Shown here: positions 1,532 through 63,554 of the stretch, piece after piece
Position numbering within the stretch: the stretch's first letter is position 1
How the letters are laid out: the number at the start of each line of letters is the position of its first letter
Virus record (IMG/VR): IMGVR_UViG_3300022699_000232
Location: 1 to 64,000 of that record
Source: a virus
DNA: 64,000 nt
Strand: one strand, 5' to 3'
The notes under the pieces: model-generated
The model's database searches: none
Told to the model about the DNA's origin: nothing
The model's input: the letters and a program-made list of their open reading frames with translations, nothing else
Translations under genes and position numbers: made by a program

Positions 1532-1897
1532 CTACTTCTGGTATTCGAAAGCTGTGCTTTCTCGGCGGGGAGGAAGCGCTTCCGTCTCGACTCCTTCTTC
1601 GTCACCCTCGATGACAGCAGCGACGTTTCCTTCACGTAGTACGCGGTAAACCTCGTCATCGACCTCGATGTCGGTTCCTGCGTAGGATCCGAATACCACT
1701 CTGTCGCCGGGCTTGAGGGTCGTCGCTACCCACCGTCCATCCGCGTCGTAGGTGCCCGGTCCGACTGCCAGAACCTCTCCCTTTCTCTGCGCCTTCTTGC
1801 CGGAGGGCGGAAGCCAGATACCTCCGTCCGTGCGCGTCTTTGGGCGGTCGACGCGGACGATGATGCGGTCGTGAATCGGGCGTGCCTTGATCGTCAT
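1532..1897 (-). CDS. groES: GroES/Cpn10 co-chaperonin
   Basis: Cpn10 signature RPIHDRIIV..TDGGIWLP..GEVLAVGPG..LKPGDRVVFGSYAGTDIEVDDEVYRVLREGNVAAVI, plus a ~20 aa C-terminal extension. Confidence 0.95.
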   Translation of the reverse strand: MTIKARPIHDRIIVRVDRPKTRTDGGIWLPPSGKKAQRKGEVLAVGPGTYDADGRWVATTLKPGDRVVFGSYAGTDIEVDDEVYRVLREGNVAAVIEGDEEGVETEALPPRRESTAFEYQK

Positions 1898-1918: not shown

Positions 1919-2728
1919 CTAACCGGAGATGAGGGGAGTCGCACGCTCCCAGTTGATCGCGTCTTGCTCCAGCTTCTCCTCAAGCTGATCGGCGCGCTGA
2001 AGAAGCGCGCCACCGTTCATGGTTCGTTCTCCGCCTACCGTCGGGTAGGCGTCGTAGGTGTCTCGGATCGTGCCGAGAGTGCGCATCGCCTCGATCATCA
2101 GCTTCCGTCTGTAGTAGTCGGAGAAGCGCGGGTCGAGTTGCTCGGGACGAACGTCAGACGAGCCTACCTTGAGGATCGCGCTCGAAATCTGTGTTCCCAG
2201 ACCTCCTGCACGCGGCGGAGGCGCGATCACAAGGCGCCGAAGCTCTGGTTGCCAGTCCCAGTCGCGGTCGGTCGAGAAGATGCGTCCGATCTGCTCCAAG
2301 TACTGGAGACGCTGCACCAGGTCGGAGTAGGGCATCGGCGCCTGTTGGGGCGAGGTCCAGGCGCCAAACAGACTCGTGAAGTAGGTGAAGGAGAAGCTAT
2401 CGACGTCCAGCGTGGGAAGCTGGAAGCTAGGCAGCCAGATGTCGAAGACCTCGATGACGTCGCTGGAGAGGTAGTAGTTCGACTGACCCGGCACGAGCGG
2501 AAGCTGCTGGTACTTGATGAAACCGATTCGTTCGGCGTACCAACGATCAGTGTCGTCGAGAGCATCCTTCTTGTGGTCGTTGGTGAGTTCGATGTCGATG
2601 ATCCCACCACCCAGCTTCCGCAGGGTGTAGCCCCACCACTCGTCCTTGGTCTTCCCTGTGGGTCCGGGCTGGCCGGCTGGGGTATCAGGCGGCTGTTGCT
2701 CGGGGATGTTCTGGCCGTCGGTCGCCAT
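1919..2728 (-). CDS. neck protein / head-tail adaptor, T4 gp13-like
   Basis: N-terminal LRKLGGGIIDIELT and C-terminal GGERTMNGGALLQRADQLEEKLE..PLISG match the gp13 pattern (LRRLGAPIINVELT ... GGVTIDGQRLIEEA..GILVG). Confidence 0.85.
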   Translation of the reverse strand: MATDGQNIPEQQPPDTPAGQPGPTGKTKDEWWGYTLRKLGGGIIDIELTNDHKKDALDDTDRWYAERIGFIKYQQLPLVPGQSNYYLSSDVIEVFDIWLPSFQLPTLDVDSFSFTYFTSLFGAWTSPQQAPMPYSDLVQRLQYLEQIGRIFSTDRDWDWQPELRRLVIAPPPRAGGLGTQISSAILKVGSSDVRPEQLDPRFSDYYRRKLMIEAMRTLGTIRDTYDAYPTVGGERTMNGGALLQRADQLEEKLEQDAINWERATPLISG

Positions 2729-2760
2729 AAGTCGCGCCTTCTACGTAGGGAGACACGACT

Positions 2761-2769
2761 ATCTTAGCA
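2761..2769 (-). promoter_or_regulatory. putative extended -10 promoter (TGCTAAGAT) for the neck/GroES operon
   Basis: TGn-TAAGAT about 30 nt upstream of the gp13-like start; same TGn-TAnnnT pattern recurs at 3883, 19212 and 29322. Confidence 0.4.
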
Positions 2770-2806
2770 GTTCGACGGCAATTACCGCACTAGGGTATAG
2801 ACGGTT

Positions 2807-3220
2807 ATGCGCGTCAAGATCGTCGTGAGAAGCCCGAAAGGACGACGCCTGAAACGGCACTGTGTCGACGGTCAGACGCTTGCATGGATCGTTAGCGAAC
2901 AAGCCGTTGCTGAGAACAGATGAGTCAAGAAACTTCGCATTGGGCTCGATCAGATTGGGAATCTGAACCGTCTACCGGTTCACGTCGAATGCGCTCTTGC
3001 TGTTTCAAGTCCGCTTGGGCTAGCTGTTGTCTGGATCGGCCGAACGTCGGGGCGTAGGAGAAATTCTAGGTCTGCCGTGGAGAGTTGCGCGCCGGAAACA
3101 GCGGCTCTGATGGACGTTGACGGGGATGCTGCCAAGAAAGAGGCTGCCTGGCGCACTCTTATGAGGGCCTACGACGACCACTGGACGCCGCTCGAAATCC
3201 TCGCGGCCGTGGCCGAGTGA
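2807..3220 (+). CDS. 137-codon hypothetical ORF with one in-frame TGA (2921-2923): readthrough/selenoprotein candidate or pseudogene
   Basis: Manual translation: MRVKIVVRSPKGRRLKRHCVDGQTLAWIVSEQAVAENR*VKKLRIGLDQIGNLNRLPVHVECALAVSSPLGLAVVWIGRTSG...AWRTLMRAYDDHWTPLEILAAVAE*; fills an otherwise empty gap; absent from the ORF track. Confidence 0.55.
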
Positions 3221-3329
3221 TGATGGCCTGCGCCGGTGCGCGTATCTTCTTCCAAACGAGAGACTTACTATTTTCTCGAATTCCTCTTGCGCCGACCCGG
3301 CGCATCTGGTCTAAACGTTCCTGCTCAGC

Positions 3330-3834
3330 GACGGCTGGGTGACGCAGTTTGACAACCGTACCGCCAAAGCCCAGGGCGCCAGGAACCACCAGGAGCCGTA
3401 CGGCTAACACCGTATGTCACCAGGAGGGGGAGTAGCGCCCACCGGCGGAAACTCACCGAACTTCGGTTCGGCAGAGAGTCGTCGGCACCAGCCAAGTCGG
3501 TTGGATGGGAGTCTGTGTAGGATCAAGACCGAAGATCTTTCGGGGTCTGACGTTGAGATTGAGTCGGCGCACGGGGATGCCTGGGTAACACCGGGGGGAT
3601 TCGGGCGTCGGTGCTCCGGTCAGGTCGTTTCGACGATCTGGTGGGAGGCGCAGCGGTGCGGTTGAGATGACAGCGTGCGTAACGGGTAAGGCCGTCGTGC
3701 GTGCGTCTGTTGATTGGATGTTCCTCACCGTCCAGCCAGTCTAACAGCCCGTCGGAGCGGAGCCGGGAAGAGGCGGCAGCGGCGAAAGCCGGTGCCGCTC
3801 TCTTCATGTACGGGCGATGCGCAGCCGTCGCGCA
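3330..3834 (+). ncRNA. large highly structured non-coding RNA candidate (family not identified)
   Basis: Closing helix 3330-3342/3725-3741, 12-bp helix 3353-3364/3653-3664, nested hairpins with UUCG and GAAA tetraloops, many G-U pairs on the + strand, no credible ORF. Confidence 0.75.
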
Positions 3835-3861
3835 ATACCCCATCGCTTACCATTCGGTTCC

Positions 3862-3891
3862 TTCACAAGTCCCCGCATGACGTGCCATAAT
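3862..3891 (+). promoter_or_regulatory. sigma70-like promoter TTCACA-18-CATAAT with extended -10 TG
   Basis: TTCACA 3862-3867 and TGCCATAAT 3883-3891, upstream of GAGG RBS and ATG 3909. Confidence 0.55.
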
Positions 3892-3908
3892 CATGCCGAG
3901 GGACCCGA

Positions 3909-4652
3909 ATGGCAGCCGTCGATCTCCTTACAACAAAGCCGCCGCAGAGCGTGCATCTGTTTCCGACGACGTCCGGTGCCATCCCGGCCGGCTCCGATCT
4001 TGTGCAGCGGCAACAGGAAGAAGCTCTCTTCTTCCAGTACTGGCCTCAATCGCTCGTCGACGACTACCAGGTCGAATACGCGGAGCATCAGGTCCCCGGC
4101 GGCTCGCATCCGCTCTATCAATGGGTCGGGGGGCGCGGTCGTGTGATCTCCTTCCAGGCGATCTTTACCTCCGAACTCAATACCTCCGGGTTAGGCCGAG
4201 TCAATGCTTCAGGCTTCATCCCATCTTCTACCGCTGGCGCTGTCGCGGTTGCGAGTAACCTGACGCCATCGAATCCCTTTACAGTCGATGTCTCGGCGGC
4301 GCTTAATCGACTTCGCGCCTGGCTGCGTCCTCGCTACCAGTCGGGTGGTCGACTGGGGGTAGTTTCTCCGCCCCCAAAACTGACGCTGGTTTTCCCTGGA
4401 ACGAGTCTCAACGGAACCAGTGACCTCATCACCGTTATCCTCAGAAGCGCTCCGGTCACTATCGAGTCGTGGTTCCCGGATGGACAACCGCGTGTGGCGA
4501 CAGTGGATCTGACGTTCAACGAGATCGTCCAGTCCTCGTCCGGCCAAGGCGATACGACCTCGGTCGAGTTCATCGGGCGAGACAACTTCGCAGAGGCAGG
4601 TCGCGGCTACCGCTTTCGTGGTCTCCCAGATCGACCCTTTGTGGGAGCGTAA
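3909..4652 (+). CDS. tail tube initiator / CIS tube-like protein (Afp7, T4 gp48/gp54-type)
   Basis: FQYWPQSL..YAEHQVPGGSHPLYQWVGGRGRVISF..PPPKLTLVF..VTIESWFPDGQPRVATVDLTFNE follows the CIS_tube family pattern. Confidence 0.8.
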   Translation: MAAVDLLTTKPPQSVHLFPTTSGAIPAGSDLVQRQQEEALFFQYWPQSLVDDYQVEYAEHQVPGGSHPLYQWVGGRGRVISFQAIFTSELNTSGLGRVNASGFIPSSTAGAVAVASNLTPSNPFTVDVSAALNRLRAWLRPRYQSGGRLGVVSPPPKLTLVFPGTSLNGTSDLITVILRSAPVTIESWFPDGQPRVATVDLTFNEIVQSSSGQGDTTSVEFIGRDNFAEAGRGYRFRGLPDRPFVGA

Positions 4653-18205: not shown

Positions 18206-18284
18206 ACCTTGATTCTACTTGGGTCGACTCGTGCCGCCAGTTAGGATCGCCCAGGAAGACCCGGGGTTGGCGTGGTGCGGTCTC

Positions 18285-19169
18285 GTGAAAGAGAGAAAGA
18301 CCGTGCTGATCCTCAGTGTTGACGGTGGCGGCGTTCGGGGAATCGCCGCGGCCATCTTGCTGCGGCGCCTAGAAGAAGAGGTTCCCGGGTGGATCGCGAA
18401 GGTCGATCTTTTCACAGGTGCGTCGACTGGCGGAATCATCGCGCTTGCGCTTGCCTACGGTCTCCATCCCGATGAGATCGAGCGCTTCTATCGTGCCGAA
18501 CTTCCTGAGATCTTCTCTCAGTCTTGGTGGCGGCGGTGGATGGTGCTTTGGCGCGCCAAGTACAGCAACAAGGCGCTGCGCGAGTCGCTTAGGTCGGTCT
18601 TCAAGGACGCACGACTCGGTGATCTCGCACGAGAGACATTGATCTCCACCTACTTCTTGGGATCCAGGGAGCCCTTCGAGCGCGCGCATCCTAAGTTCTA
18701 CTCGCGGCGCCGCAATCCCAAAACAAAGCTCGCAGATCTTGCTCTCTGGACTAGCTCTGCTCCTACGTTCTTTCCGAGCGCAGATCGTCACGTCGATGGC
18801 GGTTTGTCGGCTAACAACTGTGCCGTCTGCGCCATGGCTTTCGCGGATCGTTACGGCGCGTCTTTGAGCGACATGACCGTGCTTTCGGTGAGTACGGGCC
18901 TCTCGCCAATGGTTCTAGAGGGTGGCGACCGAGGGCTCGCTTATTGGGGTCGATCCATTCCCGAGACGTTGATCGATGGTGGGGTCGATGTTGCTGACTA
19001 CCAGGCACGCCACTTCCTGGCCGACGAGGGGACGTATCATCGTCTCCATCCTGAACTTGGGGAGGAGATTCCCCTGGATGATGTCGCACGGCTGGACGAT
19101 CTCTGCGAGTTCGCAGAGAGCGTCGATCTTACTTCTGCTACTTCTTGGCTTGCGGCTCAGGTAGGCTAG
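18285..19169 (+). CDS. patatin-like phospholipase
   Basis: ILSVDGGGVRG oxyanion motif, GASTG nucleophile elbow, SSAPTFFP, DGG catalytic Asp, VLSVSTG; likely GTG start 18285 (track start 18219). Confidence 0.92.
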   Translation: MKERKTVLILSVDGGGVRGIAAAILLRRLEEEVPGWIAKVDLFTGASTGGIIALALAYGLHPDEIERFYRAELPEIFSQSWWRRWMVLWRAKYSNKALRESLRSVFKDARLGDLARETLISTYFLGSREPFERAHPKFYSRRRNPKTKLADLALWTSSAPTFFPSADRHVDGGLSANNCAVCAMAFADRYGASLSDMTVLSVSTGLSPMVLEGGDRGLAYWGRSIPETLIDGGVDVADYQARHFLADEGTYHRLHPELGEEIPLDDVARLDDLCEFAESVDLTSATSWLAAQVG

Positions 19170-62125: not shown

Positions 62126-62721
62126 GGCATTATTTCGGCTACGACACCAACGGAGTGCTGCGGTCTGTTGAGGTCTACGGCCCCGCAGGTTGGCCTTCGT
62201 CCCACTGCGTGGAAGACCCTGACTGTCAGGAAGATGCTGTCACGAGTCTTCGTGAGGGCCGGGCCAACAACGCACCAGACGTAATCGACTGGGTCCTTTT
62301 CGATTGTTCGTGCGATCCAGCACAAGGCGCGTTGCTCAAGGATTGCGTCTGCTACAACGCGGAATTTGCCGAGAGCTACGTCAACACGCAGACCAAGACG
62401 CTCGTCAAGAAGCCTCTCCGAACTGTCCAACTCGACAATAAGACCATCTCAAACAACGAGACAATCACTCATCCTCCCGGGACGAAGGTTGTTCTCAAGA
62501 TCATCTCAACGGGAATGCCGGACGGGGAGACGGCTCACTGCACCCAGAAGGGTGCTGTGGATCTAACGCTCGATGATGAGTGGGATCTCACCTTCGAGGG
62601 TGGGGTTACGGACGCGAAGACTCTCACAGCCCCGGCCCAGGGTACGAAGGGTGTTGTAGCTATCAGCGGAAAGATGATGCGCCCCATCACGTTCTGCCTG
62701 CGCGGCTTCGAGGACGAGTGA
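62122..62721 (+). CDS. Cys-rich hypothetical protein (possible fibre assembly factor)
   Basis: GTGA overlap with the preceding gene; 199 aa. Confidence 0.65.
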   Translation: MRHYFGYDTNGVLRSVEVYGPAGWPSSHCVEDPDCQEDAVTSLREGRANNAPDVIDWVLFDCSCDPAQGALLKDCVCYNAEFAESYVNTQTKTLVKKPLRTVQLDNKTISNNETITHPPGTKVVLKIISTGMPDGETAHCTQKGAVDLTLDDEWDLTFEGGVTDAKTLTAPAQGTKGVVAISGKMMRPITFCLRGFEDE

Positions 62722-63554
62722 GCAAGATCGACGATATCCTGCCGCTTCCAGAGCAAGCAGACGTTCACCTCATCTGCCCCGATATCCTCGCCGTCAAGCG
62801 CATCGTTCCGTGGGGCGATGAACTGATTCGAGTCTCCGAGAACATCAACAAGTGGAAGCAATCCGATCAGGTTCATGCTGGTAACGCTGGGCCCGGCTAC
62901 ACTTCCGAGCACCGGACCAGCAGAAGCTTCTACGTCACGAGCGCTCATCCGGATTTCGGTCCGTGTCTCAGACGCTTCGAGCACGGTCTGATGCGCGCAT
63001 TCCATACGGCCGCAGTTGCCTACAAGAGCTACAACTCAAGCCTCGTGGCGACCGACGACTCAGGCTACGAACTCCTTCGCTACCGCGAGGGGGAGATGTT
63101 CTCTGCGCACGTCGATACGATTGTGGGTCGCCAGAAAGCGTTTCGGCAGCTTAGCGCAGTTTGCTATCTGAATGCCGACTACAGTGGGGGCGAAACCTTC
63201 TTTCCGAGGCAGCAGGTCAAGTTCCGCCCGGAACCTGGAGACATCCTGATGTTTCCGTCTAACTTCTGCTATCCTCATGCTTCCCTTCCAGTAATCTCCG
63301 GTACCAAGTACGCTGTGGTGACGTGGTTCGTCGCCTACCCGGAGAGACCGCAAGAAGACAAGCAGGAGGTCGATGGTGAAGAGGAAGAGCCACTGGGCGC
63401 TGACGATGGTGATGATCCTGCTCCCGGTCACGAACGGGTGCGCATGGTTCGGGACGCCGCCGGAGGCGGAGCTTCTACAGGAGAACCGCAAGCATCTGGT
63501 CGAGAGCATTCGGCCTGCGCTAGTGGATGCGCTTCACAAGGCCAAGGGTCCTGA
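62718..63554 (+). CDS. 2OG-Fe(II) oxygenase, prolyl 4-hydroxylase-like
   Basis: LLRYREGEMFSAHVD..RQLSAVCYLNADYSGGETFF..PGDILMFPSN..YPHASLPVISGTKYAVVTW (HxD..H..K); likely GTG start 62718 overlapping the previous stop. Confidence 0.9.
   Translation: MSKIDDILPLPEQADVHLICPDILAVKRIVPWGDELIRVSENINKWKQSDQVHAGNAGPGYTSEHRTSRSFYVTSAHPDFGPCLRRFEHGLMRAFHTAAVAYKSYNSSLVATDDSGYELLRYREGEMFSAHVDTIVGRQKAFRQLSAVCYLNADYSGGETFFPRQQVKFRPEPGDILMFPSNFCYPHASLPVISGTKYAVVTWFVAYPERPQEDKQEVDGEEEEPLGADDGDDPAPGHERVRMVRDAAGGGASTGEPQASGREHSACASGCASQGQGS

Follow-up and report, generated by a model that had tools for sequence, protein, structure and literature searches.

The locus and its probable RNA gene

We analysed a window of 64,000 nt, the first 64 kb of the 74-kb IMG/VR virus record IMGVR_UViG_3300022699_000232, and describe here a large structured RNA, probably a gene of its own, on its + strand at ~3322-3808. 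The record has a G+C content of roughly 60 % and a completeness of 26 % (CheckV), and is thus a fragment of a jumbo phage. The RNA lies within a virion gene cluster, in the divergent intergenic region 2729-3908. The gene to its left, for an Ad2-like neck or head-tail adaptor protein, is transcribed away from the RNA and has a GroES co-chaperonin gene beyond it, while a tube-like tail gene follows to the right on the same strand as the RNA (Table 1). The last credible upstream frame stops at 3220 and the tube-like gene begins at 3909, which leaves 688 nt (3221-3908) free of any credible open reading frame (ORF). An earlier note on this DNA had proposed that a gap of about 690 nt inside the virion morphogenesis cluster holds a large, multi-domain non-coding RNA, possibly of a new class. 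The gap and its setting among neck, GroES and tube-like genes were borne out, and the proposal of such an RNA is supported by the analysis set out below.

The RNA is ~490 nt long in the window and ~545 nt in its relatives. Its fold comprises some 22 nested helices. H1-H4 are stacked and close the molecule, two multi-arm domains come next, and the 3' part consists of hairpin H21 and of H22 with its loop; a separate terminal hairpin (H23) follows.

Homologs, covariation and strand

Homologs were sought in IMG/VR and in JGI metagenomes with the neck protein as anchor, and then with DNA patterns taken from words that the RNA conserves. Five further distinct copies were recovered (L012, L011, L010, L013 and L084), the last being the sole new copy from the JGI metagenome pattern scan; the remaining copy-bearing loci are duplicates. 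The neck proteins of the five relatives are 83-88 % identical to that of the window. The window and the five relatives were aligned by MAFFT (alignment A4), and the RNA columns of this six-sequence alignment, which spans 578 columns, are 73 % identical on average.

RNAalifold returned 167 consensus pairs from the six sequences, 61 of which carry compensatory double changes. Two kinds of control were used, in which the pairing partners were slid by 1-3 columns or the columns were shuffled 500 times. Over the 167 consensus pairs, 90.5 % of cells pair, compared to 34-44 % when the 3' partners are slid, and double-sided changes are seen at 65 pairs, compared to 12-22 in the slid alignments. None of the 500 column shuffles reached the observed value of any of five measures. 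In 302 cells the commonest pair of the position is replaced by something else, and 69 % of these cells still pair, whereas the shuffles average 50 % and reach 56 % at most. Covariation among homologs, which the earlier note had named as a check on its proposal, is therefore present.

The same alignment holds 160 G-U pairs compared to 23 A-C pairs, and it is therefore the + strand that forms the RNA. Folding of 3320-3840 agrees with this assignment, as the + strand reaches -248.9 kcal/mol (z -4.30, with 0 of 100 shuffles as good) and the minus strand -201.9 kcal/mol (z -1.50). The RNA proper (3321-3810, + strand) gives a z-score of -4.65 and the L011 homolog one of -6.68. No reading frame is conserved, several stops being found in every frame of every homolog; the longest open stretch in the L011 copy is 69 codons, and the indels of the alignment are mostly not multiples of three. 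The earlier suggestion that the element is a + strand RNA rather than a DNA palindrome is upheld by these data, and two outcomes that the earlier note had named as refuting its proposal, folding no better than shuffled sequence and a protein-coding frame kept across homologs, were not seen. On the strength of the high proportion of paired cells, the double-sided changes, the shuffle controls, the excess of G-U pairs and the lack of a frame, we conclude that the RNA structure is real and selected.

Anatomy of the RNA

The closing helix, H1, is nearly invariant on both sides, with one double change, and it was recovered by single-sequence minimum free energy folding in both the window and L011. 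Between H3 and H4 lies a near-invariant internal loop, UGA (3350-3352) opposite AGAU (3665-3668), of which the UGA side is invariant and the AGAU side reads AGCU in one relative and AGAG in another. Its sequence raises the possibility of tandem G-A pairing. In Domain II, all five relatives carry an extra hairpin, H19-H20, where the window shows a 52-column gap (A4 columns 337-388, at ~3640-3644). Because this module is missing from the window and kept in the five relatives, the window copy is a natural minimal version of the RNA.

The most conserved, and the longest conserved, unpaired stretch of the molecule is UGUUCCUCACCGUCCA (3719-3734), the core of the 27-nt loop enclosed by H22. Its family form is UGUUCYUCACCGUCCA, and 15 positions of the loop are invariant; across the RNA, 56 of 244 unpaired columns are invariant. 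Candidate long-range partners of this loop are AGGAAC (3381-3386) and GCGGAGC (3757-3763). The GCGGAGC pairing shows one U-A to C-G double change and one mismatch, and both candidate partners are otherwise invariant; a pseudoknot scan returned candidates with no decisive covariation. When a target complementary to the conserved loop was sought in the window, only the loop itself was found. The terminal loops of the RNA are not conserved, and alignment A4 showed no self-complementary one that is kept across the copies.

Much of this architecture had already been drawn in the earlier note. Its 12-bp long-range helix (now H4), the GGGCGC/GCGCCC junction, the long arm and a set of hairpins are all in the six-homolog consensus with compensatory changes. 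The loops that it listed were all found in place, namely UUCG at 3462-3465 and 3629-3632, GAAA at 3784-3787, CUAACA at 3404-3409 and GUAACA at 3585-3590. Its end-to-end closing helix (3330-3342 with 3725-3741) did not hold, being specific to the window; the relatives have CCAGUA, CCAAAC or CCAGCA for CCAGCC. A 3' domain had also been proposed, and here the inner hairpin (3768-3806) is real, as a separate terminal stem-loop, whereas the outer GCCCGT/ACGGGC helix is window-specific and was rejected, as H1 uses GCCCGUCGG for its conserved 3' strand.

A further complementarity was seen in the window, where GCGACGGCUG (3328-3337, in the 5' strand of H1) is a perfect match to the complement of CAGCCGUCGC (3823-3832), 17 nt past the terminal hairpin. 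This pairing dominated the first fold of 3320-3840, is not present in the relatives and is probably due to chance.

Table 1. Coordinates of the RNA, its helices and the flanking features in the window; the last five rows give approximate positions in the genome of Salmonella phage Munch (MK268344)
Feature	Position	Strand	Details
GroES co-chaperonin gene	1532-1897	-	E 4.9e-25
Neck / head-tail adaptor (Ad2-like) gene, left neighbour	1919-2728	-	PHROG 211 head-tail adaptor Ad2, E 9e-07
ORF-X, second optional unit directly 5' of the RNA	2807-3220	+	Frame broken by TGA at 2921-2923
Conserved upstream block, promoter-like	3287-3315	+	TTGCGC-N17-TCTAAA preceded by TG; ends 7 nt before first helix H1
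RNA body, helices H1-H22, closed by H1	3323-3763	+	RNAalifold consensus of six
H1, closing helix, joins 5' and 3' ends	3323-3340 with 3747-3763	+	15 pairs, 95.5 % paired
H2	3341-3345 with 3703-3707	+	Double changes in 3/5 pairs
H3 and H4	3347-3365 with 3653-3671 (H3 3' strand 3669-3671; H4 3' strand 3653-3664)	+	H4 double changes in 5/11 pairs
Domain I: H5 closes junction with arm H6-H8, arm H9-H10 and hairpin H11	3368-3510	+	1-5 pairs per helix changed both sides
Domain II: H12 closes junction with arms H13-H14, H15-H16 and H17-H18	3514-3652	+	H18: 7/9 pairs changed both sides
H21, hairpin with invariant CGG/CCG tip	3673-3702	+	11 pairs, 95.2 % paired, 3 double changes
H22, enclosing 27-nt loop	3709-3713 with 3741-3745 (span 3709-3745)	+	4/5 pairs changed both sides
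H23, terminal G+C-rich hairpin, terminator-like	3768-3806	+	18 pairs, 3 double changes
Tube gene promoter-like site	3862-3891	+	TTCACA-N18-CATAAT with TG; 10/12 matches; only site called in 2650-4000
Tube-like tail gene, right neighbour	3909-4652	+	Pfam CIS_tube, E 0.0059; PHROG 76 tail protein, E 4e-04
Munch element copy L141	40495-41180	+	
Munch element copy L144	100116-100682	+	
Munch element copy L148	182040-182618	+	
Munch element copy L152	262986-263503	+	
Munch element copy L154	316421-316849	+	

Putative transcription signals

The TTG and TGGTC.A of the conserved upstream block are invariant in all six homologs, and in each of them 7 nt separate the block from H1. At the other end of the RNA, the 3' strand of H23 and its tail read UUCUUUC(A/G)U(U/G)U in the relatives, which is a U-rich run. 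The block and the geometry of H23 are as expected of an RNA gene, and, judged on its sequence, the block may act as the promoter. The promoter-like site of the tube gene lies downstream of H23, and this block is kept in L003, a relative which has no RNA. Neither the upstream block nor the tube promoter recurs elsewhere in the window above chance. An inverted repeat of 15 nt (3850-3864 / 3898-3912, 87 % complementary) brackets the tube gene promoter-like site and extends to the start codon; it may form a 5' structure of the tube mRNA.

Distribution and loss

The RNA was always found in the slot between the neck and tube genes, with the neck gene beside all six copies and a homolog of the tube-like gene beside the five that have downstream flank on the contig. 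All metagenome-recovered copies are at this one site, and the 74-kb record, itself rated as 26 % of a genome, holds one copy. In the window, L002, L006 and L084 this slot contains ORF-X as well as the RNA; in L004 and L005, from which ORF-X is missing, it holds the RNA alone. Neither unit is present in L003 (and L091), where the gap between neck and tube genes is 115 nt and the neck protein is 84 % identical to that of the window. This gap (L003:1884-1998, the same as L091) keeps a 22-nt relic, in which 18 of 22 nucleotides are those of window 3557-3578, a match that none of 200 shuffles equalled. The relic lies between conserved neck-side and tube-side blocks and corresponds to the middle of the RNA, and it therefore indicates that the RNA was deleted there and not newly gained elsewhere.

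Wider searches were based on two covariance models. R1 covers the 5' 195 nt (the 5' strands of H1-H4 and Domain I) and scores 147-206 bits on the six copies; R2 was searched alongside it. No copy was found by nhmmer, R1 or R2 at 15 more distant neck-gene loci, in which the neck protein is 41-66 % identical and the gene order different, nor in five whole related records, one of which is a complete 275-kb genome with terminal repeats. Pattern scans of IMG/VR returned the known copies and chance hits only (L007-L009 and L014-L081), the latter being rejected by nhmmer and, for part of them, by model searches. Two candidates from JGI metagenomes, L085 and L086, failed both on alignment and on score and were set aside. 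A pattern scan of 185,579 prokaryote genomes, one per species, gave 18 hits, all of ≤24 bits with R1, and hence no cellular homolog, and a blastn search of the INPHARED phages in distant mode gave no match. A search of the flanks for direct or inverted repeats, as a sign of a mobile element, gave none that was convincing.

The family is therefore narrow, being held by one clade of uncultured jumbo phages, as well as single-site and dispensable, the latter because one close relative (L003) has lost the RNA and more distant relatives are without a copy. In this respect the RNA looks like an optional accessory gene.

ORF-X and other genes of the window

Intact homologs of ORF-X, of ~136 aa, occupy the same place in L002/L090, L006/L094 and L084. 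The in-frame TGA of the window copy (2921-2923) aligns with a Trp that is invariant in the three intact homologs (L090, L084 and L094), and the stop codon of ORF-X itself is also TGA. From this alignment, the TGA would be either a TGG-to-TGA nonsense mutation, in which case the window copy is a pseudogene, or a site of read-through. ORF-X has no Pfam or PHROG family match. It was considered as a partner protein of the RNA and rejected, as it belongs to no family and is missing from two RNA-bearing loci.

The neck protein has 108 homologs in which Pfam PF26809 is present, and it is 25-28 % identical to its counterpart in the 350-kb Rak2-like phages, e.g. Salmonella phage Munch. The assignment of the tube-like gene was made from weak matches only (Pfam CIS_tube and PHROG 76). 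Farther along the window are genes for a tape-measure protein and tail-fibre-like proteins, a patatin-like phospholipase (18219-19169, + strand, E 2.6e-26) and a 2OG-Fe(II) oxygenase domain protein (62580-63554, + strand, E 1.7e-15). Most other large proteins of the window have no Pfam or PHROG match.

Comparison with catalogued RNA families

A search against Rfam 15 (4227 families) gave no match at gathering thresholds in the 64 kb, nor at E≤10 in 2700-4200, and three related loci gave no match at E≤1. This search, which the earlier note had called for, included GOLLD, ROOL, OLE, HEARO and the introns. Chance-level hits to BSnc120, RT-11, BjrC68, isrK and CsrC were all far below the thresholds of these families and were rejected. 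ARAGORN found no transfer RNA (tRNA) or transfer-messenger RNA (tmRNA) gene in the window. Together with the Rfam result, this confirms the earlier impression of an RNA lacking any RNase P, tmRNA, signal recognition particle or tRNA signature. A group I or group II intron was also rejected, as neither has an Rfam match here and both neighbours are complete in L003 without the element.

A second ORF-free conserved element was found in Salmonella phage Munch (MK268344), in five spaced copies on the + strand (Table 1) that have the long words CGGCAATGCGGC, GATAGACATAT and GAAACAGGGCAACCCGC in common. Profile hidden Markov models (HMMs) of this element and of the present RNA, searched by nhmmer in both directions, gave nothing at E≤10, and neither R1 nor R2 found a match on the 350-kb Munch genome.

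Discussion

Our study revealed a large RNA with a selected fold at a single site in one clade of jumbo phages. We consider that it is probably a stand-alone, trans-acting accessory structured RNA, of a family that is held in no catalogue. Such an RNA would be transcribed as its own unit, from the TTG...TGGTCTAA block 7 nt before H1 to an end at the terminal hairpin. The invariant H1 strands, the near-invariant UGA/AGAU loop and the conserved loop may form a tertiary core, possibly via long-range pairing, and the RNA would then act in trans through its shape.

Several points weigh against this interpretation. The family comprises six distinct sequences only, all from one clade, and the covariation consequently rests on few independent events. 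Of the cells that have changed, 31 % are unpaired in the MAFFT alignment, although H5, H8 and H14 of the window look, in our opinion, to be out of register there, which would lower the proportion of changed cells that still pair. Both H1 strands are invariant, as is the conserved loop, which places H1 and any pseudoknot beyond covariation testing. A consensus sigma-70 scan calls no promoter before the RNA, and a strict terminator scan no canonical terminator behind it, in the window, L011 or L084; because of this, the ends of the RNA were drawn from conservation and geometry. Finally, the RNA has no conserved partner gene, as ORF-X, which lies beside it, is without a family and is missing in two copies.

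The position of the RNA also invites a different explanation, in which it would act in cis on the tail-tube operon, as a leader or attenuator with a sensor domain that controls passage through H23 into the tube gene, which begins 100 nt farther on. The RNA is oriented like the tube gene and stands immediately 5' of it in the five of six copies with downstream flank, the 3' strand of H1 ends 4 nt before H23, and alternative pairings are possible, as words resembling GAAGAG and CUUCUU are found repeatedly, in the 3' strand of H1, in the conserved loop and in the two strands of H23. However, the promoter-like site at 3862-3891 stands between H23 and the start codon of the tube gene, and L003 has both this promoter block and the tube gene without the RNA. 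Rfam gave no match to a riboswitch family, and we know of no leaders of 22 helices and 490 nt. We therefore regard an attenuator as unlikely.

It is rather less probable that the RNA is a ribozyme, self-processing or acting on other RNA, with its conserved junctions and loop as the active site. Its size, its multi-domain build, the closing helix that joins its ends and the 56 invariant unpaired columns are all as in large ribozymes. Against these stand the negative Rfam results for group I and group II introns, RNase P and the small self-cleavers, even at E≤10, and no catalytic motif was recognized. In addition, no gene is interrupted by the RNA, the neighbours being intact in L003 where it is gone.

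Membership of a known family of large phage RNAs, as a very distant relative of GOLLD, of ROOL or of the multi-copy element of Rak2-like phages such as Munch, seems more improbable still. The present RNA is of the same size class, phage-borne and apparently its own unit, and the 25-28 % identity of its neck protein to that of the Rak2-like phages points in the same direction. The GOLLD and ROOL models nevertheless fail to match it, and no tRNA genes are nearby. As for Munch, HMMs in both directions and the two covariance models find nothing there, the conserved words differ, and the Munch copies are not near the neck gene, whereas the window record holds a single copy. The idea of a DNA-level element (an origin, packaging or recombination site) or of the wreck of a former protein gene has very little to commend it: the slot is divergent and gains and loses ORF-X, and is thus prone to recombination, yet DNA palindromes would not be expected to fold so differently on the two strands or to show G-U and A-C in a ratio of 160:23, 22 helices are kept by compensatory changes, no frame is conserved and no terminal repeats flank the element.

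If the element is a trans-acting RNA, as we prefer, its function may be considered in the light of its loss. The earlier note had suggested a role in virion assembly or late-gene control from the position of the RNA. This was not supported, since the RNA is lost in L003/L091 and lacking in the distant relatives, and since the tube gene has a promoter-like site of its own; dispensability therefore argues against its being required to assemble the neck or tail. As a tentative guess, modelled on what has been proposed for ROOL, GOLLD and OLE, the RNA might bind a host or phage protein, as scaffold or as decoy, or might self-assemble, and could thereby serve host takeover or counter-defence and not virion building. 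A bolder version, to which we give slightly less credence, would see in it a new class of large ornate RNA, comparable in rank to GOLLD, ROOL and OLE, that works by its three-dimensional fold alone. It could in that case be an RNA-only assembly, or could capture a defence or translation factor of the host with high affinity, and would be carried as an optional weapon by a clade of jumbo phages of soil or sediment.

Few natural RNAs of >400 nt are known that combine an elaborate conserved fold with no known job, namely GOLLD, ROOL, OLE and a handful more. Each of those solved so far has revealed an unexpected RNA architecture (PMC12286853). Within the limits of a family of six sequences from one clade of an uncultured phage, the present RNA is a compact and well-delimited further example, with clean covariation, minimal and extended natural versions, and a natural knock-out in a close relative. 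Taken together with the different multi-copy element of the Rak2-like phages, it suggests that RNAs of this kind are common in giant phages, and their function becomes a tractable comparative question.

Comparison with known systems

The element of Munch differs from the present RNA in its arrangement, as it occurs in five spaced copies, none of which is near the Munch neck gene, whereas the present RNA is mostly nested, sits at one site and is single in 74 kb. On the basis of their sequences, we have treated the two as separate families.

Among well-known phage RNAs, the pRNA of phi29 is the only one that takes a direct part in virion morphogenesis, the kind of role at which the earlier note had hinted. 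It is an RNA of ~120-174 nt from phi29-like podoviruses, essential for packaging, where it forms a ring on the portal. The present RNA is three times larger, has no Rfam match and is dispensed with by a close relative, L003.

OLE RNA (RF01071) is likewise a large ornate RNA, of ~600 nt, that serves as a protein-binding scaffold, which is the kind of action thought most likely for the RNA described here. OLE is chromosomal, belongs to anaerobic Firmicutes and has its protein partners encoded beside it (PMC12286853). The present RNA, by comparison, gives no match to the OLE model and has no conserved partner gene beside it.

A survey of structured RNAs in IMG/VR yielded motifs of 29-151 nt only (PMC10690425). 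Larger RNAs, GOLLD and ROOL, have their genes in phages and prophages and assemble in vitro into nanocages made of RNA alone (PMC12286853, PMC5737381), and they are often found near tRNA islands (PMC12286853). The covariance models of ROOL (RF03087) and GOLLD (RF01998) give no match to the present RNA, which lies between neck and tube genes in a window without a tRNA and not near tRNAs as these two often do, and which is represented by six sequences of one clade, with terminal loops that are not conserved. The likeness is nevertheless considerable, as all three are phage-borne and several hundred nucleotides long, with elaborate covariation-backed folds, and are non-coding RNAs to which no function has been assigned. 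By size, fold and carriage in phages, the large ornate phage RNAs GOLLD and ROOL are the nearest kind to the RNA of this jumbo phage clade.

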